Part shown: positions 27,876 through 58,963 of the stretch, one piece after another
Layout: each line of letters begins with the position of its first letter
How positions within the stretch are numbered: the stretch's first letter is position 1
DNA from: Bacteroidales bacterium
GTDB lineage: Bacteria > Bacteroidota > Bacteroidia > Bacteroidales > VadinHA17
DNA: 64,000 nt
Reading direction: 5' to 3'
Assembly (NCBI GenBank): GCA_041686075.1
Contig: JAWLEO010000004.1
Span: 11,006 to 75,005 of the forward strand
Position numbers and translations under genes: made by a program
Notes under the pieces: generated by a model
The model's input: the letters and a program-made list of their open reading frames with translations, nothing else
The model's database searches: none
What the model was told of the DNA's origin: nothing

Positions 27876-28002
27876 TTCTGGTAAATTTTTATTGAAAACG
27901 TAAATATAGGAATTATGTATAGTTTTGGCCGGAGCCCAGACATTTTTGTAAAACACAGCTAAACCAAAGACATTCTGCATTCAACATTCAACTCCCTGCT
28001 CC

Positions 28003-30162
28003 CTAAATTGCTTCCAATGTCCCGTTTAGCCGGATATCTTCCGAAGAAGCACCGACCATCAATTTGATCTTCCCCCTTTCAAGAATGAAGTCATGTTTTT
28101 CTACGTTCCAGTACCTTAGCTCATCTGCTTCCAGGGGGATGGTAACAGTCATGCTTTCACCTGCTGGGATATGGATACGCTTGAAGCCCTTTAAAGCCTT
28201 GACCGGTCTTTTAACTTTTGAATCAGGGAAGCTTACATAAAGTTGTACCACTTCATCGCTGTTAACCGTACCGGTGTTTTGCACAGTGAGAGAAACATCA
28301 ACTACCTCTCCTTCCTTTAGTGTTTCCTTTTCAAGCTTAAGGTCAGAGTACTCAAATGAAGTGTAGCTAAGCCCATGTCCAAAGGGGAAAAGAGGTTCAT
28401 GTTTGTCGTACATATATGTGCGGCCATGGCGGATATTGTAATCAAGTATTGGCAGCAGGTTATCTATTGAAGCTGACCATGTTTGTACCAGCCGGCCGGC
28501 AGGGCTTACTTTGCCGAAGAGTATATCTGCCAGTCCGTTTCCCATCTCCTGGCTTGATTGTGTAATGTGAAGGATAGCCGGTACATTTTCTTTAGACCAG
28601 TTAATGGCATATGGGAAGCTGGAAACCATTACAAGCACGGTATTTGGATTGGCAGCCTTTACCAGCTTCACCAGGTCTTCCTGCTCAATGGATATTGCCT
28701 GGCGGTCCACTTCTTCGCGCCCGTCACTGTATACATGATTCTGTCCCCAACCGAGGCCGTAGCTTAGGGGATGGTTGCCGATGCATACTATGGCAATATC
28801 CGATTCACGGGCTGCTGTAACGGCTGAATCCGCCTTATTGGTTTTTGCAAATTTAACTTCGAGATTTTCGCCGGCAGCCTTACTGATGCCGTCAAGTATT
28901 GAGACTCTGTAGGGAGGAGTGCCCGAATACCAGTCCGGGACGACAAGGTTGGCACTGGGACCTATCACGGCGACTGATTTGATTTCTTCCTTGTCCAAAG
29001 GTAAGAGGCCATCATTCTTCAGCAGGACTATCGATTTGACCGTGGCCTCCCTTACCAGGTCCCTGGCTTCCTGCTTTGTCCATGGTTTTGTTATGTCATC
29101 AATACCGATATTGTTGTAAGGATTTTCGGGATCCTCATCAAGTAGACCTAGCCTGAGCATTACCCTGAGGTTACTTCTTACGGCCTCATCTATTTCTTCT
29201 TCAGTCACAAGGCCCTGGTTCAGTGCTTCCCTGAGGGCTGATTTATAATCATCCAGGAAAACAGTTATTCCTGCTTTAATGCATTCAGCGGCTGCTTCAG
29301 GGAAATTATCATAGTACTGATGTGAATTGACCAGGTGGGTAAAAGCGCCACCATCGGTACAGATGATTCCGTTCTGGCCCCATTCTTTCACAGTTATATT
29401 TTCCAGCATGGGGTGGACGGTACAGGGAATACCGTTGTATTTGTTATAGGCAGCCATGAAAGCCCTTGATCCGCCTTCAACAACTCCTTTATAGAAAGGG
29501 TAGGAATAATATTCACGGAAGAGGCGTTCATCAAAGTCGGACGAGTTGATATAGCGGTTATTCTCGTTGCTGTTTGCCAGGAAGTGCTTCATCAGGGAGG
29601 CTGTTTTCCAGTAGCGGGGGTGGTCACCCTGGAGGCCTTTCACAAAGGCGCCTGTAAGGACGGAAGCGAGGTAGGCATCTTCACCGTAGCATTCTTCAGT
29701 GCGGCCCCAGCGTATATCCCTCCCCAGGTCTGCGTTGGGAGCAAGTAAGATAAGGCCGGCACTTTTATAGTCTTCATTCTGTGCCAGGAAACGTGTCTCG
29801 TACGCTTCCCATGCGGCTATTTCCTGGTGCAGCACAGGGTCCCACATCTGTGCCAGGCCATAAGCCTGGGGGAAGGTGGTGGTGGGCGCCTCACCCTCGC
29901 CTTTTACGGCCCAGTTAGCCGGCCCGCTTAGGGCAAGTCCGTGAAGGCCTTCAACAAAGCGCGTTCCTTCCACCCCCAGCCTGGAGATGCCTGGCAGGCG
30001 GGACGACAGGTGGTCGATTTTCTCATCCATGGTCATCAGGGAGATGAGGTTGTCAAGGCGTTCTTCATCGGGAAGATCAGTGTTTCTGAACGGGTATTCC
30101 TCTGTCTGCGAACAGGACAGGGCAGTAATGATTATAAAAATCAGAAATAATGCTTTTTTCAT
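28003..30162 (-). CDS. glycoside hydrolase family 3 lipoprotein (beta-glucosidase/xylosidase-like)
   Basis: 719 aa. Signal MKKALFLIFIIITALSC, GH3 N-terminal barrel, nucleophile-region GIICTDGGA (cf. SDCGA/SDW), alpha/beta sandwich, and a C-terminal FnIII-like domain (VSFPDS..RPVKALKGF..I). Confidence 0.85.
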   Translation of the reverse strand: MKKALFLIFIIITALSCSQTEEYPFRNTDLPDEERLDNLISLMTMDEKIDHLSSRLPGISRLGVEGTRFVEGLHGLALSGPANWAVKGEGEAPTTTFPQAYGLAQMWDPVLHQEIAAWEAYETRFLAQNEDYKSAGLILLAPNADLGRDIRWGRTEECYGEDAYLASVLTGAFVKGLQGDHPRYWKTASLMKHFLANSNENNRYINSSDFDERLFREYYSYPFYKGVVEGGSRAFMAAYNKYNGIPCTVHPMLENITVKEWGQNGIICTDGGAFTHLVNSHQYYDNFPEAAAECIKAGITVFLDDYKSALREALNQGLVTEEEIDEAVRSNLRVMLRLGLLDEDPENPYNNIGIDDITKPWTKQEARDLVREATVKSIVLLKNDGLLPLDKEEIKSVAVIGPSANLVVPDWYSGTPPYRVSILDGISKAAGENLEVKFAKTNKADSAVTAARESDIAIVCIGNHPLSYGLGWGQNHVYSDGREEVDRQAISIEQEDLVKLVKAANPNTVLVMVSSFPYAINWSKENVPAILHITQSSQEMGNGLADILFGKVSPAGRLVQTWSASIDNLLPILDYNIRHGRTYMYDKHEPLFPFGHGLSYTSFEYSDLKLEKETLKEGEVVDVSLTVQNTGTVNSDEVVQLYVSFPDSKVKRPVKALKGFKRIHIPAGESMTVTIPLEADELRYWNVEKHDFILERGKIKLMVGASSEDIRLNGTLEAI

Positions 30163-30536: not shown

Positions 30537-30611
<75 letters not shown>

Positions 30612-50052: not shown

Positions 50053-51462
50053 TTATTGCACTTCAATATCAAAGATTTCATGCCGGTCAAGGTTTTTCCA
50101 GTAAAGTATGGCTTTTTGCCGAACCAGTTCCCAGTATATATTGCTGTCGAGCCCGTAAATGAAATTGATCTCTTTCAGTTCGTTTCTTATCGCAGAAGCT
50201 AAATCATCAACAAGACTCAGTTTTATAGTTCTGTCCATATAGGTAAAGCTTGCTTGTGGTACACCTTCATCATTGACCACCTCAAGCAAGCCATGCCCTG
50301 GTGTTGCTCCGCAGCTTACCTGCAGGCCGTCATTCAAGCAGCTTACCGGGGTTACTGAACCTGCATACGAGACAACATTCATTTCATCCACACCTATATG
50401 GAAATATTCCCTGGCTCTTATGCCCATCTTTAAACCTATTATTGCATATATACCGAGATGGCGGTGTAACTCATTTGTAAGTACACCAGCTTCAAATTCC
50501 TCCTTGCCATGGCGAGAAATTATATCCGGTATGTATTCCTGTATATCTGGAAAATAAAATGATGTATCGGAAGGTATGTCCTTGAATACCTGGTTCCTGT
50601 TGACCGTATTACCCGATAGGATATCACATATCGCCTCATCATCTATATTTTCCATTACCGGCCTGTAAAAAGAAATATTACCGAGCGAATCACCTGTAAA
50701 CATTTCCGGGTAATGAAGATAAAGGGGTATCATGTCATCTACAAGTCCAAATATGAAGTCGTGATGCTTTTGAGAATTTAAAAGTTCGGATGTTTTCTTA
50801 GCATATGGAGTGTTGATCTCTTTGATCTTTTGCTGAAGCAGGCTGTCATAAAACTCCGGGAAGAAGTATCCCACCACTTTTACAGGTATATCCTTCTCCA
50901 TCATCTTCATGGCCGATAATGTATCGAGCTCGTAATTGAAGCCCCCCAGCGGATTAATGCCATCATTACTCCAGATAAGATTTTTTACCTGGCTGAAAAG
51001 AACAGGATGTTCTTCAGAAAACCGGTAAGCGGTGTTAAGACTTGCCAGTGAAATAAAGCTCACTGGTGTTTTTTCGTGCTGCAGCACATAGCTCAGCACC
51101 TTGTTATAATTCTCGGCCTTATCCGGGTTTATCCCGGTGATATCTGCCCAGTCAAAGGCCATGGGCAGAGGCATTTCCCTGAATGCGGAATTTCTGTTTA
51201 TACCTACTTTAAGACCCTGATGGTAATAATGATTGAGCAAGCTCCTGACTTTAATATATGACTCTTCGGCAGGCATAAGACCGCCGGATGCAATAATTGC
51301 CAGCACCCTGACGTCAGGAGAGGCAAGTAACATGTTTATGGCCTTCAGATCGTCCAGGCCCCCGTCAGTGTCTATTATAACATAATGGGATGGCTTCCAT
51401 GGATGGGCAAATAATATTTGCGTACAAAATATAAGTAAGAGAGCACTTATTATCTTTTTCAT
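50053..51462 (-). CDS. secreted fusion: nucleoside-hydrolase-like domain + FmdE-like domain
   Basis: 469 aa with signal MKKIISALLLIFCTQILFA. N-terminal VIIDTDGGLDDLKAINMLL matches the IUNH DxDxxxDD motif. C-terminal ELHRHLGIYAIIGLKMGIRA..VSCLNDGLQVSCGATPGHGLLEV resembles the FmdE family (HGH.CPG..iG.r.. / C..D.iQ...GCT.Gkg.L) with the first metal motif degenerate. Confidence 0.6.
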   Translation of the reverse strand: MKKIISALLLIFCTQILFAHPWKPSHYVIIDTDGGLDDLKAINMLLASPDVRVLAIIASGGLMPAEESYIKVRSLLNHYYHQGLKVGINRNSAFREMPLPMAFDWADITGINPDKAENYNKVLSYVLQHEKTPVSFISLASLNTAYRFSEEHPVLFSQVKNLIWSNDGINPLGGFNYELDTLSAMKMMEKDIPVKVVGYFFPEFYDSLLQQKIKEINTPYAKKTSELLNSQKHHDFIFGLVDDMIPLYLHYPEMFTGDSLGNISFYRPVMENIDDEAICDILSGNTVNRNQVFKDIPSDTSFYFPDIQEYIPDIISRHGKEEFEAGVLTNELHRHLGIYAIIGLKMGIRAREYFHIGVDEMNVVSYAGSVTPVSCLNDGLQVSCGATPGHGLLEVVNDEGVPQASFTYMDRTIKLSLVDDLASAIRNELKEINFIYGLDSNIYWELVRQKAILYWKNLDRHEIFDIEVQ

Positions 51463-51563: not shown

Positions 51564-53084
51564 ATGAAAAGATTCTGGTTCATTTTCATCCCTGGCCTGA
51601 TACTGGGGATTCTTTTGGTTCTTGGAAGTAACAGTGCCATAAGGCTTACTTCCAGGAATGAATTCTGCGCAAGTTGTCATATTCATCCCCAGGCTACCAC
51701 CTCATGGAAACAGTCAGTACATTATATTACGAGGTCAGGTGATAAAACAGCCTGTGTCGAATGTCACCTTCCCCCTAAAGGCCAGGGGCATATACCTGCC
51801 AAGATAAAGACCGGTGTAAGGGATGTATGGGGACAGTGGTTTAAGGATCCGGAGAGTTTTAACTGGGAAGAAAAATCAAGGCTCGAAAATGCCAGGAAGC
51901 ATGTACCGGAGAGTTCGTGCCTCTATTGCCATGAAACATTGTTTACACCCGAGTTGACAAGGGAAGGAGAAGAGGCCCATCTTTATTATGACCAGGCTGA
52001 AAAAACCGATGATCTTCATTGTATTAACTGCCACCTGAATGCAGGTCATTATATCGAGGGGTATACTTATGGCAGCAATGAATCATTCGGGTTGGAGGAG
52101 AAGCCCGAAATAATTTATGACAGGCCGGCAAATGTTATATCATTCAACTCATACACTGAATATATACCGGGCTCTTCCGTTTCCTTTCAGATGGTGGCAA
52201 TCCCCGGAGGTGAATTCACCATGGGCAGCCCGGAGAATGAGCCTTTCAGGGATAAGGATGAAGGGCCGCAGGTTAAAGTAAAGATCAGTCCCTTTTTCAT
52301 GGGAAGGATTGAGGTTACCTGGAATGAATACCTTGCTTTTTATGAGCAGACCTCTGCTGAAGGGCGCACAACAGATACAGAAGGGGTAAGAACAGGGTCG
52401 GCTGTCGATGCCATAAGCGGTGCCACACCCCCATATGGTCAGCCCGACCAGAACTGGGGTATGGGTGACAGGCCTGTGATTTCTATTACCCATCATGCCG
52501 CCCAAACGTATTGTAAATGGCTTAGCCTGGTTACGGGGAAGACCTACCGCCTGCCTACAGAAGGGGAATGGGAATATGCCTGCAGGGCAGGTACGGAGAC
52601 ACCGTATTTCTTTGAGGGCGATCCTGAAGATTTTCAACGAAGAGGATTTTTGTCGTGGATAAGGAAAAATGATACCTCAAAAATTAATACATTTGTCGTA
52701 TACCGGGCCAATAGTTCGGCTAAGACACAGGAGCCTGGAGTGGTGAAACCAAATCCCTTTGGCTTAAAAAATATGCCGGGTAACGTGGAGGAATTTTGTT
52801 CCGATTGGTATTCAGACAGTACATATGCCATGTATCCTGAATCTGGAGTGACAGATCCTATAGGACCACCCTCGGGTGAAGAAAAGGTAATAAGAGGGGG
52901 ATCTTTCAGGGACCCGGCCAGTGAGCTGAGGTCAGCAGAACGTGATCATACAAAAACAGAACGGTGGCTGATGACAGATCCCCAGATACCAAAGAGCATA
53001 TGGTGGTATTCTGATTGTTACCACGTCGGCTTCAGGGTAGTATGTGAGTACGATGAGAACACAGGCAAAACAATGAACGAGTAA
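51564..53084 (+). CDS. membrane-anchored tetraheme NapC/NirT-like cytochrome c fused to an FGE/SUMF1-family domain
   Basis: 506 aa with N-terminal TM (FWFIFIPGLILGILLVLG). Four CxxCH motifs: CASCH, CVECH, CLYCH, CINCH. The FGE-sulfatase-type domain follows (MVAIPGGEFTMGS, PV..ITHHAAQTYCKWLS, YRLPTEGEWEYACRAG, NPFGL.NM.GNV.EFC.DWY, IRGGSF, VGFRVV). Confidence 0.8.
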   Translation: MKRFWFIFIPGLILGILLVLGSNSAIRLTSRNEFCASCHIHPQATTSWKQSVHYITRSGDKTACVECHLPPKGQGHIPAKIKTGVRDVWGQWFKDPESFNWEEKSRLENARKHVPESSCLYCHETLFTPELTREGEEAHLYYDQAEKTDDLHCINCHLNAGHYIEGYTYGSNESFGLEEKPEIIYDRPANVISFNSYTEYIPGSSVSFQMVAIPGGEFTMGSPENEPFRDKDEGPQVKVKISPFFMGRIEVTWNEYLAFYEQTSAEGRTTDTEGVRTGSAVDAISGATPPYGQPDQNWGMGDRPVISITHHAAQTYCKWLSLVTGKTYRLPTEGEWEYACRAGTETPYFFEGDPEDFQRRGFLSWIRKNDTSKINTFVVYRANSSAKTQEPGVVKPNPFGLKNMPGNVEEFCSDWYSDSTYAMYPESGVTDPIGPPSGEEKVIRGGSFRDPASELRSAERDHTKTERWLMTDPQIPKSIWWYSDCYHVGFRVVCEYDENTGKTMNE

Positions 53085-53098
53085 TTATTATTAATCTT

Positions 53099-53275
53099 AT
53101 AACTGATAACCTTGTCCACTGTAGCAAGGCACGGATCTGGAACCGAGGAGCCTGAGCTTGCTATGGCAAGCGATGGTGACGAGCTCGACGAAATGAGTTG
53201 GCACGAGTCTGGAGACTCGCGCCAGCGATTTAAGTCAGATCCGCGCCAGCGAAGGAGGACTCATAACTGATAACC
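53099..53275. repeat. nested GC-rich hairpin element flanked by a 13-bp direct duplication (ATAACTGATAACC)
   Basis: ATAACTGATAACC occurs at 53099-53111 and 53263-53275. Outer clamp is GGCACGGATCT (53128-38) / AGATCCGCGCC-AGCG (53237-51). Inner clamp is GGCACGAGTCT (53200-10) / AGACTCGCGCC-AGCG (53213-27). An extra stem GCTTGC-tatg-GCAAGC lies at 53156-71. Confidence 0.8.
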
Positions 53276-54622
53276 ATGAAAAATTCCATATCACGACGAA
53301 GCTTTCTTGGCAAAGCTGCAGCAGCAGGTGCAGCAGGTGCCGTAATACCCTCTTTTTTGAACTCATGTGCCCCCGATGGCAGTAAGAGAGATATCATAGT
53401 ACCTGAATTCCTTGACCAGGCACCCGACGGACCTGAATTAAAGGCCGGACTTATCGGCTGCGGTGGTCGTGGCACAGGAGCGGCAATTGATTTCCTTTCA
53501 TCCGGCCCGAACCTGAAAGTAATTGCCCTGGGTGATGTGTTCACCGACAGGCTTAATTCATGCAGGGAGAGGCTGGTGAAGGAGAAAAATAATGAAGTGG
53601 CCGATGAAAACTGTTTTATTGGCTTTAATGCTTTTCAGGAGGTAATTGACTCTGGTGTGGATGTAATAATTCTTGCCACTCCACCTTTCTTCAGACCTGA
53701 GCATTTTGCTGCTGCAGTGGATGCACGAAAACATGTTTTCATGGAGAAACCTGTTGCAGTAGATCCTCTAGGTGCAAGGTCAATAATGGCCACTGCAAAA
53801 AAAGCAGAGAGCATGGGCCTCAGTGTCGTGACGGGAACCCAGCGCAGGCACCAGAGGGATTATGCCAATACTTATGCACAGGTTGCGGCAGGCACCATGG
53901 GTGAGATAGTAAGTGCAAACTGCTATTGGAACCAGAGTAAACTGTGGCACCGTAATCCAAACGCAGAGTGGACTGAAATGGAATATATGATCAGGAATTG
54001 GGTAAACTGGTGCTGGCTCTCAGGTGACCACATAGTTGAACAACATGTTCATAACCTGGATGTTATCAACTGGTTTACCGGTAAACACCCTGTCCAGGCT
54101 GTAGGTTTCGGATCACGACACAGGAGGGTTACGGGAGACCAGTATGATAATTTCAGTGTAGATTTTGTTCTGGATAATGGTGTACACGTCCACAGTATGT
54201 GCCGGCAGATCAATGCTTGTGCAAATAACGTTTCAGAGCATATACAGGGAACCCTCGGTTCATCCAATTGCCGGGATTCAATAGTTGATCTCAGTGGACA
54301 GGTGATATGGAAATATGATTATCCCCTGAATGATGAGGGAGAAGAAACAAACAGCGTAAGTATCAGCCCTTATGTCCAGGAACATATTGACCTTGTAACT
54401 GCAATCAGGACAGACAAGCCTTTCAATGAAGCAGAAAATACAGCTATCTCTACAATGGTTGGCATCATGGGTCGTATATCATCTTACACGGGAAAACTGG
54501 TGACATGGGATGAAATGATGAATTCAGACCTTAAGCTCGGACCCCAGGTGTTCGAATTTGGACCGGTAGACATTCCAAAAGAAGTACCTGTTCCCGGTGA
54601 ACCATATAAGCCCGATGTGTAG
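53276..54622 (+). CDS. Tat-exported Gfo/Idh/MocA-family oxidoreductase
   Basis: 448 aa. Twin-arginine signal SRRSFLGKAAAAGAAGAV, Rossmann GLIGCGGRGTGA, and the family EKP motif (FMEKPVA). Confidence 0.85.
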   Translation: MKNSISRRSFLGKAAAAGAAGAVIPSFLNSCAPDGSKRDIIVPEFLDQAPDGPELKAGLIGCGGRGTGAAIDFLSSGPNLKVIALGDVFTDRLNSCRERLVKEKNNEVADENCFIGFNAFQEVIDSGVDVIILATPPFFRPEHFAAAVDARKHVFMEKPVAVDPLGARSIMATAKKAESMGLSVVTGTQRRHQRDYANTYAQVAAGTMGEIVSANCYWNQSKLWHRNPNAEWTEMEYMIRNWVNWCWLSGDHIVEQHVHNLDVINWFTGKHPVQAVGFGSRHRRVTGDQYDNFSVDFVLDNGVHVHSMCRQINACANNVSEHIQGTLGSSNCRDSIVDLSGQVIWKYDYPLNDEGEETNSVSISPYVQEHIDLVTAIRTDKPFNEAENTAISTMVGIMGRISSYTGKLVTWDEMMNSDLKLGPQVFEFGPVDIPKEVPVPGEPYKPDV

Positions 54623-54683
54623 GGTACTGTTATTTCTCGCTATAACTTTTATACTGGATGCCTGCTCATACAATGAGCCTTTA

Positions 54684-55312: not shown

Positions 55313-56677
55313 TTATTCCAGTGCTTTTTTCAGGGCTTCTGTTGTGGTGTAATATTTGACGATCATGTTGGGCACCTCCCATTCTGGCATCTCTCCTTTC
55401 TCCAGGTATTCCAGGTATTTTTCCATTACCTGGCCGAAATGGGCCTCGTGACCCAGCCTGTATTTTTCAGGTATTATGAATTTCCATTTCTTGTCGTTGA
55501 CCTCCAGGTATTCAACTCCATCCCACGGTAATTCATCAAGTGCACTTTTCAGTATATCTTCAAACCCAGGGAGGGTATTTTCAAGTTCAATGTACAGTAC
55601 AGGTATATATCCTTCCTTCTCCCCATGCCTGATCACCAGGTTCGACTTTGTCCCGCGCATTATTGAATAATGAGTATCTCCTGTCCTTTCAGGTGCCCGG
55701 TATTTCCATACAACAACTATCCTGGCAAAGGTGTCTTTTATCTTATACAATATTTCTCCGTTTGCATATACGTGGAGCTCACCATCAATAATATCTTTTT
55801 CAAGATATGGTGGGAAGTCATCCATTCCGGTTACTTTGCTGAACTGGTCAGCACTCAGGACCGTAGGCCACCTGCGGGCTTCAATAATTTCAATATCAGA
55901 TCTTTCAAGTATCTCACCCGGGTAACATTCCCATTGAATGAGGTCAACCAGGTGGGTCGTTACATCCACAATACCTTCTCCCTGTTGCTCGGTGTCAAAG
56001 AACCACGGGGGCCTGACAAGGGCGGAACCGGCCACATATTTAAAGAAGTGATGTACACTCTCTTTGGTAACAGCTGGTTTATCGGGGCTTCCCCTTACTA
56101 GTTGACCGAAAATTTCATTGTTTTGAGACAGGGCTTTCTGAAGCATTGTTGTGATCTCGTATCTCTCGGTCATAATATCATAGAGCAGGACATTATTATC
56201 TTCAGCTATGTTGAATGCCTTTTCCAGCATGGGAAATTTATCCGGAGTAATAACCATGGGCTTATCGGCCAGTACATTCAAGCCGGACTTGATCGATTCA
56301 AGAATATAATCCGTTTTCTTTTGATTATTGCCTGCCAGCACAACAAGATTCCCCGGTTGCTTCACAAGCATCTGTTCAAAGAAATCGGGACCGGTATATA
56401 CCTTTTCTTCCCAGGCTGTGGGATTTTCAGACCTATTATTAAAAGACTTTATCTTTTCCAGGTGCTGATTGAGCTCTTTTCCTTCAGGGGCGAAAACAAA
56501 TACTTCGGGAGATACTCCTTCGTACATATTCTTCTGTACCAGTGCGGCATGGAAATGCCCGGGGTCAACAGTCATAAGTCTAACGTTTTTCATCTTATCA
56601 TTACCGTCTTTTTTACCTGTACCGCAGGATGTTACTGCAATAATGAAAATGATTAACAGGTATTTAATAAATTGCAT
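55313..56677 (-). CDS. lipoprotein oxidoreductase (Gfo/Idh/MocA-related, 'DPGHFHA' type)
   Basis: ORF 55313..56752; likely start is MQFIKYLLIIFIIAVTSC (ATG at complement 56675-56677), 1 nt after the stop of the upstream gene. MTVDPGHFHAALV..VLADKPMVI resembles the putative-oxidoreductase family common in Bacteroidetes. Confidence 0.65.
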   Translation of the reverse strand: MQFIKYLLIIFIIAVTSCGTGKKDGNDKMKNVRLMTVDPGHFHAALVQKNMYEGVSPEVFVFAPEGKELNQHLEKIKSFNNRSENPTAWEEKVYTGPDFFEQMLVKQPGNLVVLAGNNQKKTDYILESIKSGLNVLADKPMVITPDKFPMLEKAFNIAEDNNVLLYDIMTERYEITTMLQKALSQNNEIFGQLVRGSPDKPAVTKESVHHFFKYVAGSALVRPPWFFDTEQQGEGIVDVTTHLVDLIQWECYPGEILERSDIEIIEARRWPTVLSADQFSKVTGMDDFPPYLEKDIIDGELHVYANGEILYKIKDTFARIVVVWKYRAPERTGDTHYSIMRGTKSNLVIRHGEKEGYIPVLYIELENTLPGFEDILKSALDELPWDGVEYLEVNDKKWKFIIPEKYRLGHEAHFGQVMEKYLEYLEKGEMPEWEVPNMIVKYYTTTEALKKALE

Positions 56678-56678
56678 A

Positions 56679-58100
56679 TTATATTCCTTTAAAATTCTTA
56701 AGTGTATAATTTGTCCCATAGGGCCATCTCTGTGGCCTGGAAAGCATTCCATTTGCCCGGTCGTTATTTATGAATTTTTCTTTATCCGGATCCCAATAAA
56801 GTTTGCCAGGCAATTTCATAGCGATATGATGAAGCAGGCATGCAGAACATGAACGGTGTCCTATTTCAGCTGTTGCTACAGGGTCTTTGCGGCTGACAAT
56901 ACAGTCAATCCAGTTTTTATGTTGTTCCGGGCTCTCATAGAGGTGTAGCTCATCTGGTCCTATAACTGAATCCAGTATTTTTTTGTCCGAGGCATCCAGT
57001 GCCTGGAGCTCCGTGTCTTCTGCCCCGGGGTCAGAAGCAGTAACCTTAACCGCTCCCCTGGAAACAAAGATCCATCCCTCTGATCCCACAAATTTTACCC
57101 CGTTGGGGTATTCTCCGCTTAGATGCATAATTACGCCATTGGCATACCTTGCAGTGGTCTTAAACTTACCATGTACATTCCACAGGCCACTCTCGGGAAA
57201 TTCCGCATAACCTTCCACTTCCACAGGACCTGTATATTCTGTTCCCAGGCCCCAGTGAGCTGTATCAATATGATGGGCACCCCAGCCGGTGATCATTCCT
57301 GCCCCGAATTGTTCGCACCGCAGCCACCCGGGCCTGCTGCCTATATCCGTTTGTGAATGCACCCTTTTCTCGGTGTAATATACATAGGGGGTTGAACCCA
57401 GCCACATATCATAATCCAGGTTGTTGGGCACGGGCATTTCGGGTTCTTTTGGTCCGGATGGATCGCCCGGAAGGCCAACATAAATTGTATGTATATCGCC
57501 TATTCTGCCATTTCTCACCAGTTCACACGCTTTCTTAAACTGGGGCCATGGATCAAGTGATCTTTGCTGGCTTCCCTGCTGAAAGATGCGGCCTGTACGG
57601 TGAATGATATTGCTCATCTGCCGGCCTTCTTCAATTGTGAGTGAGGCGGGTTTCTGAAGATAAATATCCTTACCTGCGAGTGCGGCTTCTATAGCAGGCT
57701 GGGCGTGCCAGTGATCAGGGGTTGATATAATCACGGCATCAATCGATGGGTCCAGAAGCATTTCATGATAATCCCGGTAAAGTGAAATATCAACAAAATT
57801 CTTTTTACCTGTTTTTTCCTCATAAAATTTCAGGGTCCACTTTTTGCCCTCTTTTGCCCTCTTGCTATCTACATCGGCAATTGCTACCAGCCGTGTAATA
57901 TCATGCATCAAAGTCATAGGCAAATCATGAGTCATAGCTATTCTTCCAAAACCTATCTGGGCTATGTTGATCTTATTACTGGGTGCACTGTGTCCAAATA
58001 CAGAAGATGGTACTATGGTCGGCAATACAATTGTTCCGGCAGCACCTGCCAGGCTGTTCCTGATAAATTTACGTCTGGTAATATTTTTTCTGCATGTCAT
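56679..58100 (-). CDS. Tat-exported Gfo/Idh/MocA-family oxidoreductase
   Basis: 473 aa. Twin-arginine signal TRRKFIRNSLAGAAGTIVLP, Rossmann IAQIGFGRIA, and the YLQKP (EKP-type) motif. Confidence 0.85.
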   Translation of the reverse strand: MTCRKNITRRKFIRNSLAGAAGTIVLPTIVPSSVFGHSAPSNKINIAQIGFGRIAMTHDLPMTLMHDITRLVAIADVDSKRAKEGKKWTLKFYEEKTGKKNFVDISLYRDYHEMLLDPSIDAVIISTPDHWHAQPAIEAALAGKDIYLQKPASLTIEEGRQMSNIIHRTGRIFQQGSQQRSLDPWPQFKKACELVRNGRIGDIHTIYVGLPGDPSGPKEPEMPVPNNLDYDMWLGSTPYVYYTEKRVHSQTDIGSRPGWLRCEQFGAGMITGWGAHHIDTAHWGLGTEYTGPVEVEGYAEFPESGLWNVHGKFKTTARYANGVIMHLSGEYPNGVKFVGSEGWIFVSRGAVKVTASDPGAEDTELQALDASDKKILDSVIGPDELHLYESPEQHKNWIDCIVSRKDPVATAEIGHRSCSACLLHHIAMKLPGKLYWDPDKEKFINNDRANGMLSRPQRWPYGTNYTLKNFKGI

Positions 58101-58111
58101 TGTTTTACATT

Positions 58112-58963
58112 TTATTCCGGTAATGTATTGGTTTTTACACTTGTATAATCAGGTCCACTGCCATCTCCAATGGCCCATATTATTCCGCCTTTTATGTGGT
58201 TGATAAGGTCCGGATCGGAATAATGTTTTATTGAGTGTCCCAGGGCAGTGTAGAACACCCTTCCTCCTTCAAATTCATGGTACCAGGCCAGTGGGAAATA
58301 GTTCCCAAACACTTCCCCGGGGTATATATCCTTTTGATCATCTTCAATAGTGCGTAGATCAGCGGCTAATAAGATATTAATGTCAGGGTTAAGATGTTTG
58401 AGGTAATAGCATTCGTCCTCCCAGTGCCATATGTTTCCCAGAAAACTTGTAGATGGATGATCATGGTCTATAACTTTTATTTCAAACGGTTGGTAGGGAG
58501 GGTGCCTCTCAAATTTCCCCCCCAGCATAGCCCAGAACCATTGCCATTCCCGTTCCGATCCGCAGGCTGAATGAATGCCCACCACACTTCCTCCGGCGTG
58601 TAGATACCTCACGAAAGCCAGTTTCTGCTCATCGGTGTCAAAGGTTTCATTATTGGTGTTTGATAATACAATGCAATGATACCTTTTCAGGTTATCCTCG
58701 TTTATAACTATAGGATTATCACTAACATCAACATTCATCTCATTTTGCTTTCCTATCTTTTCCAGTGCTTTAACGCTTGCTTTTATATTATCATGGACAT
58801 AGCCTTCACCGTTTTTTGTGTATACAAGTATGTTGGTGTTATAATCTGGTTTCATTTTGCAATCGTTATTGAAGGATAACATTGCGGTCAGAAGGATTAT
58901 GAGAATCTTATTCATATTTAAATTTTGTGATATTCTTTTCATAAAAATATTACTACTCCACAA
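58112..58963 (-). CDS. ThuA-domain (trehalose-utilisation-like) secreted protein
   Basis: 283 aa in the ORF; start is ambiguous (M1, MKRIS or MNKILIILLTAMLSF). ThuA pattern ILVYTKNGEGYVHD, YHCIVLSNT, GGSVVGIHSA, LGGKFERHP, HPST, WEDECYY. Confidence 0.78.
   Translation of the reverse strand: MWSSNIFMKRISQNLNMNKILIILLTAMLSFNNDCKMKPDYNTNILVYTKNGEGYVHDNIKASVKALEKIGKQNEMNVDVSDNPIVINEDNLKRYHCIVLSNTNNETFDTDEQKLAFVRYLHAGGSVVGIHSACGSEREWQWFWAMLGGKFERHPPYQPFEIKVIDHDHPSTSFLGNIWHWEDECYYLKHLNPDINILLAADLRTIEDDQKDIYPGEVFGNYFPLAWYHEFEGGRVFYTALGHSIKHYSDPDLINHIKGGIIWAIGDGSGPDYTSVKTNTLPE

Follow-up and report, generated by a model that had tools for sequence, protein, structure and literature searches.

The fusion gene and its two halves

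The stretch of DNA analysed here, referred to as the window, comprises 64,000 nucleotides of a Bacteroidales bacterium (VadinHA17; GenBank assembly GCA_041686075.1, contig JAWLEO010000004.1, positions 11,006 to 75,005 of the forward strand) and carries at 51564..53084 (+) an intact open reading frame (ORF) of 506 aa, in which a membrane-anchored tetraheme cytochrome of the NapC/NirT type is joined through a linker to an FGE-like domain. A preliminary description of the window had recognised this fusion with its single N-terminal transmembrane helix and four CxxCH motifs, and the ORF, the Pfam profiles and an AlphaFold2 model all bear it out. The helix covers residues ~4-27 (51573..51644, +), as judged from the sequence, the model and an alignment to NrfH, and we infer from the positive-inside rule and from the requirement for periplasmic heme attachment that K2 and R3 lie in the cytoplasm and the remainder of the protein in the periplasm. 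The domain borders have been fixed with Pfam profiles: Cytochrom_NNT (PF03264) matches residues 5-163 (51576..52052, +; E 9e-29, 100.8 bits against a cut-off of 24.1, profile positions 9-170 of 174), which hold the heme motifs CASCH 35-39 (51666-51680), CVECH 64-68 (51753-51767), CLYCH 119-123 (51918-51932) and CINCH 153-157 (52020-52034), and FGE-sulfatase (PF03781) matches residues 209-463 (52188..52952, +; E 2e-42, 146 bits against 23.3), with the fold reaching ~497 and the signatures GEWEYACRAG (334-343), RGGSF (444-448) and VGFRVV (488-493). The structure prediction has given a confident single chain (mean predicted local distance difference test, pLDDT, 89.2; predicted template modelling score, pTM, 0.88) from an alignment of 143 sequences that includes the distant clade described below, whereas 36 close homologues alone gave a pLDDT of 43 and that model was discarded. 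Helix 2-29 forms the membrane anchor of the model and aligns with the membrane helix of NrfH, and residues 267-282 are the sole low-confidence, disordered segment.

The protein is thus a membrane tetraheme cytochrome joined to an FGE-like domain, and it is widespread and uncharacterised. The best 120 database homologues share 64-85% identity with it, are nearly all ~500-520 aa long (range 489-563) and contain both domains in each case, and a second search, started from a member of 38% identity, has returned ~117 further, more distant proteins of identical architecture from Marinifilum, Carboxylicivirga, Labilibaculum, Saccharicrinis, Alkalitalea, Mangrovibacterium, Melioribacteraceae and Ignavibacteriales. 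The survey of its distribution, which the preliminary description had called for, hence finds the same architecture in hundreds of sequences across three lineages, Bacteroidales, Marinilabiliales and Ignavibacteriota, together with a conserved gene neighbourhood. We have collected 76 loci on genome contigs, cultured Sunxiuqinia, Mariniphaga, Maribellus and Draconibacterium included, and 80 from metagenomes. That the fusion might be a frameshift or assembly artefact, or a meaningless chance juxtaposition, has practically no probability left: the full-length architecture recurs in >390 independent sequences from isolates, metagenome-assembled genomes and metagenomes, the heme motifs are retained (at least four CxxCH in 240/242 proteins and in 153/153 locus ORFs), and the single-chain model is confident. 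The artefact has accordingly been ruled out by the distribution of the architecture. No NCBIfam model reaches its curated cut-off on the fusion protein, no chain among the solved structures searched by sequence and with Foldseek spans both the cytochrome and the FGE-like domain, and neither the architecture nor its partner is described in any paper found, with the reservation that phrase queries for Gfo/Idh/MocA were probably unable to match the slash-written name; the earlier claim of an uncharacterised fusion has therefore been retained. In databases the members are named 'NapC/NirT family cytochrome c', 'SUMF1/EgtB/PvdO family nonheme iron enzyme' or 'uncharacterized'.

In the cytochrome half, the eight heme-binding Cys, the proximal H39, H123 and H157, and H53, H139 and H162 are invariant in the 143 sequences, and H68, the proximal His of the second motif, and H41 are conserved in at least 90% of them. 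With H41, H53, H139 and H162 as candidate distal ligands, the conserved histidines would fit four bis-His hemes. Alignment (phmmer) to NrfH of Desulfovibrio (2j7a_C) places K80 on Lys82, D87 on Asp89 (segment 51801..51824, +) and H41 on Met49; K80 is invariant, and D87 is conserved in at least 90% of the sequences. In the NrfHA structures, Lys82 and Asp89 line the menaquinol site at heme 1. Since K80 and D87 match these quinol-site residues, the menaquinone pool is the most likely electron exchange partner of the fusion, and the wiring to the quinone pool suggested in the preliminary description has gained in strength. The first heme motif reads CxxCHxH (51666-51686, residues 35-41) instead of the CxxCHxM of NrfH, in which Met49 is the heme-1 ligand, and on account of this replacement heme 1 may be His-ligated in an unusual way. 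Orthology to NapC, NirT, NrfH or TorC proper has been rejected, as the NCBIfam scores lie far under the curated cut-offs (TorC 76.1 against 478.2, NrfH 67.4 against 134.2, napC_nirT 66.9 against 310.6, NapC 46.1 against 349).

The C-terminal half has kept the FGE fold without the FGE active site. Foldseek finds PvdO as the best match of this domain (5hha, TM 0.78) and FGE structures at E ~1e-17, but the alignments to five FGE/PvdO structures end at GGSF, immediately before the Cu-binding CxxxxC loop, and where the Cu(I)-binding Cys pair of FGE would be (human C336, C341) the fusion reads RDPASELRSAERDH. No His, Cys or Met of the domain is invariant among six divergent members. C317 and C494 have been lost jointly in two members (P0124 and P0135) and therefore probably form a disulfide. 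Two motifs are specific to the family and strongly conserved in it, [ST]G[AP]TPPxGxPDQxWG (285-299) and TDPQxPKSxWWxSD (471-484; T471-DPQIPKSIWWYSD-484, 52974..53015, +), the latter with D472, P473, Q474, P476, K477, S478, W480, W481, S483 and D484 invariant in the 143 sequences; it takes the place of the catalytic-cysteine loop of FGE and is kept in stand-alone relatives as well. We have found no sulfatase Pfam family in the Pfam-annotated loci and no pvd genes in the neighbourhoods. Accordingly, the domain is neither a true FGE nor a PvdO orthologue (105.9 bits against 500), and assignment to GldK/PorK has failed likewise (106.1 bits against 350, a partial alignment confined to the C-terminal half). 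A Cu or Fe site has been dismissed because no ligand is invariant, and a tryptophan/cysteine-derived quinone cofactor at WWYSDC because C485 is not conserved in P0124 and P0135.

These observations divide the earlier reading of the domain as an FGE-fold Cu/Fe oxidase or scaffold: the fold stands, but a copper or iron oxidase is unlikely, since the catalytic Cys pair and any invariant metal ligand are absent, and the family name 'nonheme iron enzyme' is probably misleading. They bear equally on the possibility that the FGE-like domain is itself catalytic, i.e., a PvdO- or FGE-like oxidase or dehydrogenase acting on a small molecule or protein, with the hemes giving or taking electrons. PvdO, a dihydropyoverdine dehydrogenase, is indeed the best NCBIfam and Foldseek match, and FGE requires a physiological reductant whose identity is not known; with a PvdO score so far below its cut-off, no Cys pair, no conserved metal ligands, no sulfatase gene and a dehydrogenase as the conserved partner (below), this explanation has become quite improbable. 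In the representative search with the FGE-like domain, giant multi-FGE proteins dominated and about ten useful divergent or stand-alone relatives were obtained; the distant matches (among P0121-P0270) are mostly huge proteins, the longest of 4448 aa, in which FGE-like repeats number as many as 19.

The partner dehydrogenase and its gene linkage

Downstream of the fusion gene, at 53276..54622 (+), lies a gene for a 448-aa NAD(P)-dependent dehydrogenase of the Gfo/Idh/MocA family (Pfam PF01408 and PF22725, with the Rossmann motif as GCGGRG, the EKP motif in MEKPVA and the catalytic D/H motif in GDHIVEQH, as read from the sequence; also supported by NCBIfam), which is exported by the twin-arginine (Tat) pathway according to a TIGR01409 match and is probably a lipoprotein. 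Among 116 orthologues of this partner the RR motif is present in 113, a lipobox-like Cys in 103 and EKP in all 116, and with 54-67% identity across phyla it is better conserved than the fusion. Its PDB relatives, DgpA and inositol dehydrogenases, are distant, and of the characterised enzymes neither IolG (63 bits, cut-off 355) nor the BT_2158 family (32.8 bits, cut-off 750) is reached, so that an assignment as BT_2158-family glycoside 3-dehydrogenase has been discarded.

The linkage of the two genes has been counted after clustering of all locus ORFs. Of the genome loci, 72 hold a complete fusion ORF, and in 63 of these the next gene downstream on the same strand encodes a Tat-signal Gfo/Idh/MocA protein, the remainder being mostly contig ends; among 66 informative metagenome loci, whose fusions diverge to ~43% identity, it follows directly in 53 and after an intervening ORF in 5 more. 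Pooled over 152 loci, a Gfo/Idh/MocA gene of the partner's cluster (c1) stands on the same strand at position +1 in 120 and at +2 in 17, usually with a gap of 5-50 bp or an overlap, and the pairing extends to Ignavibacteriota. No other neighbour is conserved across clades in these 152 loci. In the window, no terminator-like site has been found between fusion and partner, which is weak evidence alone but fits a two-gene transcription unit, and a terminator-like hairpin from a consensus scan follows the partner gene (54664..54678, +). The preliminary description had remarked on Tat-exported dehydrogenases next to the fusion; one of them has proved to be a conserved operon partner (137/152 loci), and the two proteins are very probably coupled in function.

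The divergent relatives locate this partnership. Stand-alone secreted FGE-like proteins, which are 48-55% identical to residues 193-496 and have no cytochrome domain, also precede a Gfo/Idh/MocA gene, namely P0138 (loci L164 and L165, where the Gfo enzyme comes from another subfamily), P0259 and P0175 (L168, where it is a 54%-identical orthologue of the window partner). Because these relatives without a cytochrome adjoin Gfo genes too, the dehydrogenase partnership lies with the FGE-like domain. The contigs of two further relatives (P0222, P0248) are too short for a reading of their neighbours. In a divergent high-GC fusion (P0135; L170, 3151-4736) the first heme motif is CxxxCH and the FGE-like domain is shortened; the gene follows a TonB-dependent receptor, and its end overlaps by 1 nt with the gene of a different protein unlike those of c1, a 67-aa partial sequence identifiable solely by its Tat signal.

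Several loci depart from the simple gene pair. In a subclade with 63-68% identity to the window protein (L009, L013, L014, L095, L097, L099, L113, L143, L144), a SusC/SusD pair stands immediately behind the fusion gene, and in L009 and L013 the Tat-Gfo gene reappears ~9 kb downstream, past this insertion. Locus L010 (10001-15912) holds tandem fusion genes (510 and 512 aa) and then two different Tat-signal Gfo/Idh/MocA genes (446 and 437 aa); the pairing of two fusions with two different Gfo genes suggests paralogous modules with different substrates. In the window, the spacer between fusion and partner measures 191 bp as compared with 28-53 bp in L001, L002 and L004, and contains at 53100-53276 a GC-rich insertion of ~150 nt flanked by the 13-bp direct repeat ATAACTGATAACC (53100-53112 and 53264-53276). 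This insertion is absent from the closest relatives, folds strongly (minimum free energy -67.3 kcal/mol, z -4.1), occurs as a single copy in the window and is without a match in Rfam; it could represent an element similar to miniature inverted-repeat transposable elements or repetitive extragenic palindromes, with a target-site duplication.

A candidate flavinylation site in the FGE-like domain

The FGE-like domain contains a further feature, missed in the preliminary description, by which the earlier reading has been refined. Residues D282-A-I-S-G-A-T288 (52407..52427, +) agree with the consensus D-x-x-[S/T]-G-A-[S/T] of the flavin transferase ApbE, which places flavin mononucleotide (FMN) onto the last residue and which still permits ~50% modification after G-to-A or A-to-V substitution (PMC12052999). 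At this position 240/242 proteins and 149/153 locus ORFs have the pattern D..[ST]G[AP]T, as SGAT, SGPT, TGAT or TGPT with the Thr constant, and 198/242 members carry the strict form; a comparison set of ~409 other FGE domains yields 6 strict and 15 loose matches. In the AlphaFold2 model DAISGAT closes the flexible loop 267-282, and it should be extracytosolic, as it lies downstream of the N-in anchor and of c-type heme sites that are matured outside the cytoplasm. The FGE loop that aligns with the motif (AVAAAPWW in the human enzyme) lines the substrate groove beside the catalytic cysteines. A pocket for the flavin could therefore be made up of Thr288 and the WW motif, at the place of the lost FGE active site.

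Co-localisation with apbE has been used as a criterion for nominating new ApbE substrates (PMC8238504), and apbE neighbours three independent relatives or shares an operon with them: a full fusion of a high-GC organism (L138: ApbE, Tat TIM barrel, fusion, Tat-Gfo), the stand-alone form in L168 (FGE-like, ApbE with a 4-nt overlap, Tat-Gfo), and the contig of P0259, where apbE is the divergent neighbour. A tblastn search of the collected loci with E. coli ApbE has returned a single match, L138, and hence no general apbE linkage in Bacteroidota. Two published flavinylation surveys make no mention of FGE, sulfatase, Gfo or NapC (PMC8238504, PMC12052999). Flavinylation of the Gfo partner itself has been rejected, since 0/116 partners contain the motif. 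From the motif and its conservation we somewhat favour covalent FMN, bound as a phosphoester, on Thr288 of the fusion as a prediction.

The same evidence has to be weighed for a simpler arrangement, in which the module is identical and the FGE-like domain serves, with no cofactor of its own, as a docking or scaffold domain that holds the dehydrogenase or the substrate by the hemes, the SGAT-like motif being a structural or interface element. Non-catalytic FGE-fold proteins are known, and PorK and SUMF2 are among the sequence and fold matches; moreover, the domain contains no invariant metal ligand, the motif is not constant, with Pro in place of Ala in some members and AGPT or SRPT in stand-alone relatives, and apbE is missing from nearly all loci. 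A scaffold, however, offers no path from an NAD(P)H hydride to one-electron hemes, and it leaves unexplained why apbE lies in or beside three independent operons and why Asp, Gly and Thr of the motif are kept in ~98% of members and are rare in other FGE domains. We regard the scaffold as unlikely, though it is to be taken more seriously than a catalytic FGE-like domain.

Proposed electron relay and comparison with known systems

The gene almost always adjoins one exported sugar-type dehydrogenase, and for this reason the fusion probably wires that dehydrogenase to respiration. We lean towards the reading that fusion and Gfo partner constitute a periplasmic sugar or glycoside dehydrogenase:menaquinone oxidoreductase with an FMN relay, i.e., one redox module on the outer face of the inner membrane, and the two proteins would presumably form a complex. 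The dehydrogenase would be exported in the folded state with NAD(P) bound and would oxidise a sugar, glycoside or cyclitol. The enzyme-bound NAD(P)H would be re-oxidised by the FMN that ApbE has covalently placed on Thr288, on a flexible loop in the former FGE active-site groove, which would let the flavin shuttle between sites. A flavin would be required because the conversion of a hydride to single electrons is beyond hemes alone; it would split the two-electron hydride and pass single electrons to the four bis-His c-type hemes, which would reduce menaquinone at the NrfH-like site (K80, D87) near heme 1, and the net reaction would be a substrate:menaquinone oxidoreduction feeding the respiratory chain. 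The wider proposal, that the FGE fold has been repurposed as a covalently flavinylated, loop-tethered carrier and a new class of ApbE substrate that re-oxidises NAD(P)H on Gfo enzymes, with the NapC/NirT fusion as its respiratory outlet, is put forward tentatively, at slightly under even odds.

The direction of flow and the substrate can be judged from energetics and from the gene context. Electron transfer from NAD(P)H (~-320 mV) to menaquinone (~-74 mV) is downhill, and flow toward the quinone is probable. Reverse flow, with the NapC/NirT domain as a menaquinol dehydrogenase that feeds a periplasmic reduction, for instance of a 3-keto-sugar through the Gfo partner, would agree with the behaviour of most characterised NapC/NirT proteins (NapC, NrfH, TorC), which oxidise quinol, with the NrfH-type K and D, which suit both directions, and with the reversibility of Gfo-family enzymes. 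Transfer from menaquinol (~-74 mV) to FMN or NAD(P)+ (~-200 to -320 mV) is strongly uphill, however, a quinone-reducing member of the NapC/NirT family exists in cM552 of Nitrosomonas, and the gene context is catabolic (polysaccharide utilization loci, PULs; 3-keto-disaccharide hydrolase; glycoside hydrolases GH78 and GH20; TonB receptors), so that reverse flow has to be considered rather improbable.

In detail, an Ignavibacteriales locus (L162) is ordered TIM barrel, DUF1080 3-keto-disaccharide hydrolase, fusion, Gfo, GH78 rhamnosidase and TonB receptor, and a Melioribacteraceae locus (L157) TIM barrel, fusion and Gfo; in Marinifilum (L159) a PUL with SusD and SusC is followed by a hybrid two-component regulator, the fusion and Gfo, with GH20 and a ROK kinase nearby. 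Tat-signal TIM barrels adjoin in ~17 loci and lactonases in a few. This setting argues for a sugar or glycoside as the substrate class, for which we hold a fair degree of confidence, slightly below that for the direction of flow.

A number of observations weigh against the FMN relay proposed here. A few loci (L046, L095 and others) have no partner directly downstream, and the divergent fusion P0135, in which the site is degenerate (DLLSDLT), is adjoined by a different Tat protein in place of the Gfo partner, which would suit a partner equipped with a flavin itself. The apbE gene is absent from ~160 Bacteroidota and Ignavibacteriota loci and from the window; we presume that a housekeeping ApbE, serving Nqr and Rnf, accounts for this. 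About 35% of the members have Pro for Ala before the Thr (SGPT/TGPT), an exchange that ApbE would have to tolerate, and two stand-alone relatives deviate further, with DAVAGPT in one and DAVSRPT in the other, whose operon includes apbE. The FGE fold is not among the known flavin-binding folds. Finally, Gfo-type glycoside pathways can be redox-neutral, as the 3-keto intermediate is re-reduced, and then need no external acceptor.

Further genes of the window deserve mention beside the module. A second periplasmic sugar-oxidation cluster extends over 55313-58963 on the minus strand and comprises ThuA (58112-58963), a Tat-signal Gfo/Idh/MocA protein whose best NCBIfam match is the BT_2158 family (56679-58100; 127 bits against 750) and an Oxidoreduct_C (PF16490) lipoprotein (55313-56752). 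Among the genome-contig loci it is common to the closest relatives only (L001, L002, L007) and is therefore not part of the conserved module; it could be a further electron donor. The divergent upstream neighbour of the fusion gene (50053-51462, -) encodes a secreted 469-aa fusion of an inosine-uridine nucleoside hydrolase-like domain with FmdE, an arrangement of neighbours that is confined to the Bacteroidales clade (26 loci). At 28001-30000 the local GC content is 0.49 as compared with ~0.40 elsewhere, with no rRNA and with a tRNA-Ala at 30537-30611.

Periplasmic Tat-exported Gfo/Idh/MocA enzymes are plentiful in Bacteroidota, Planctomycetota and relatives, and are central to the 3-keto-glycoside breakdown of glycans, glucosinolates and disaccharides. 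Extracytoplasmic regeneration of the nicotinamide cofactor bound to them is a recognised gap in knowledge (PMC8121099): for the BT2156-BT2159 3-keto-glycoside pathway, the acceptor that re-oxidises the periplasmic Gfo-type enzyme is not known, and B. thetaiotaomicron is without cytochrome c-dependent dehydrogenases (Liu et al., PMC8121099). If the proposal holds, a large class of periplasmic orphan-acceptor dehydrogenases of glycoside breakdown in Bacteroidota and Ignavibacteriota would gain an outlet to menaquinone, periplasmic sugar oxidation would become respiratory and energy-conserving in anaerobic or facultative Bacteroidota, the FGE fold would join the ApbE-flavinylated carriers, and a family with a probably misleading name would gain a function. 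The cultured carriers Draconibacterium, Maribellus, Mariniphaga and Marinifilum make the prediction directly testable.

Compared with known systems, the fusion resembles NrfH, NapC and CymA in its N-terminal membrane helix, in four CxxCH within ~160 residues and in the quinol-site Lys/Asp pair (K80/D87 for K82/D89 of NrfH), and differs from them in the CxxCHxH of heme 1 (H41 for M49 of NrfH), in the additional FGE-fold domain of 310 residues, in the predicted quinone-reducing direction and in its partner, which is an NAD(P) dehydrogenase and not a nitrate, nitrite or trimethylamine N-oxide reductase. It shares with TorC/DorC the tetraheme membrane module and a covalent extra domain that faces one operon-encoded Tat-exported enzyme, and TorC is its third-best NCBIfam match; the extra domain of TorC, however, is a fifth heme domain, whereas the fusion has an FGE fold in this place, putatively with covalent FMN. 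With FGE/SUMF1 and PvdO it shares the fold (Pfam 146 bits; Foldseek TM to 0.78 for PvdO 5hha), but not the Cu-binding Cys pair, the catalytic loop being exchanged for DPQxPKSxWWxSD, nor the sulfatase or pyoverdine genes nearby, and its SGAT-type motif is inserted in a loop that reads AVAAAPWW or DAVVPEAPWW in FGE. The known ApbE-flavinylated carriers (NqrB/NqrC, RnfD/RnfG, NosR, PceC, PplA, periplasmic fumarate and urocanate reductases, DUF2271 and DUF3570; PMC8238504, PMC12052999) are similar in their extracytosolic location, in the D-x-x-[S/T]-G-A-T motif, in an operon-encoded apbE in some lineages and in the proposed relay between a membrane pool and a periplasmic enzyme, but the carrier of the fusion, for which flavinylation is predicted, is FGE-like and neither FMN_bind nor one of the listed DUFs.

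Periplasmic sugar or glycoside oxidation, Tat export, TIM-barrel and DUF1080 enzymes and PULs recall the glucoside 3-dehydrogenase LacABC, the membrane sugar dehydrogenases with flavin adenine dinucleotide (FAD) or pyrroloquinoline quinone (PQQ), and BT2156-BT2159. In contrast to LacABC and the FAD/PQQ complexes, the catalytic subunit is here an NAD(P)-bound Gfo/Idh/MocA enzyme, and BT2158 of B. thetaiotaomicron, which has no known acceptor, is only distantly related to the window partner (33 bits against 750). The glucose-fructose oxidoreductase (GFOR) of Zymomonas, a Tat-exported Gfo/Idh/MocA enzyme as well, takes its tightly bound NADP along on export to the periplasm (as cited in PMC8121099) and recycles its cofactor with a second sugar, whereas a dedicated membrane cytochrome-flavin partner is proposed here. 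Taken together, the combination of a dehydrogenase with a membrane multiheme module is of a known type, and an FGE-fold, probably flavinylated adaptor between the dehydrogenase and the multiheme quinone module is probably unprecedented.

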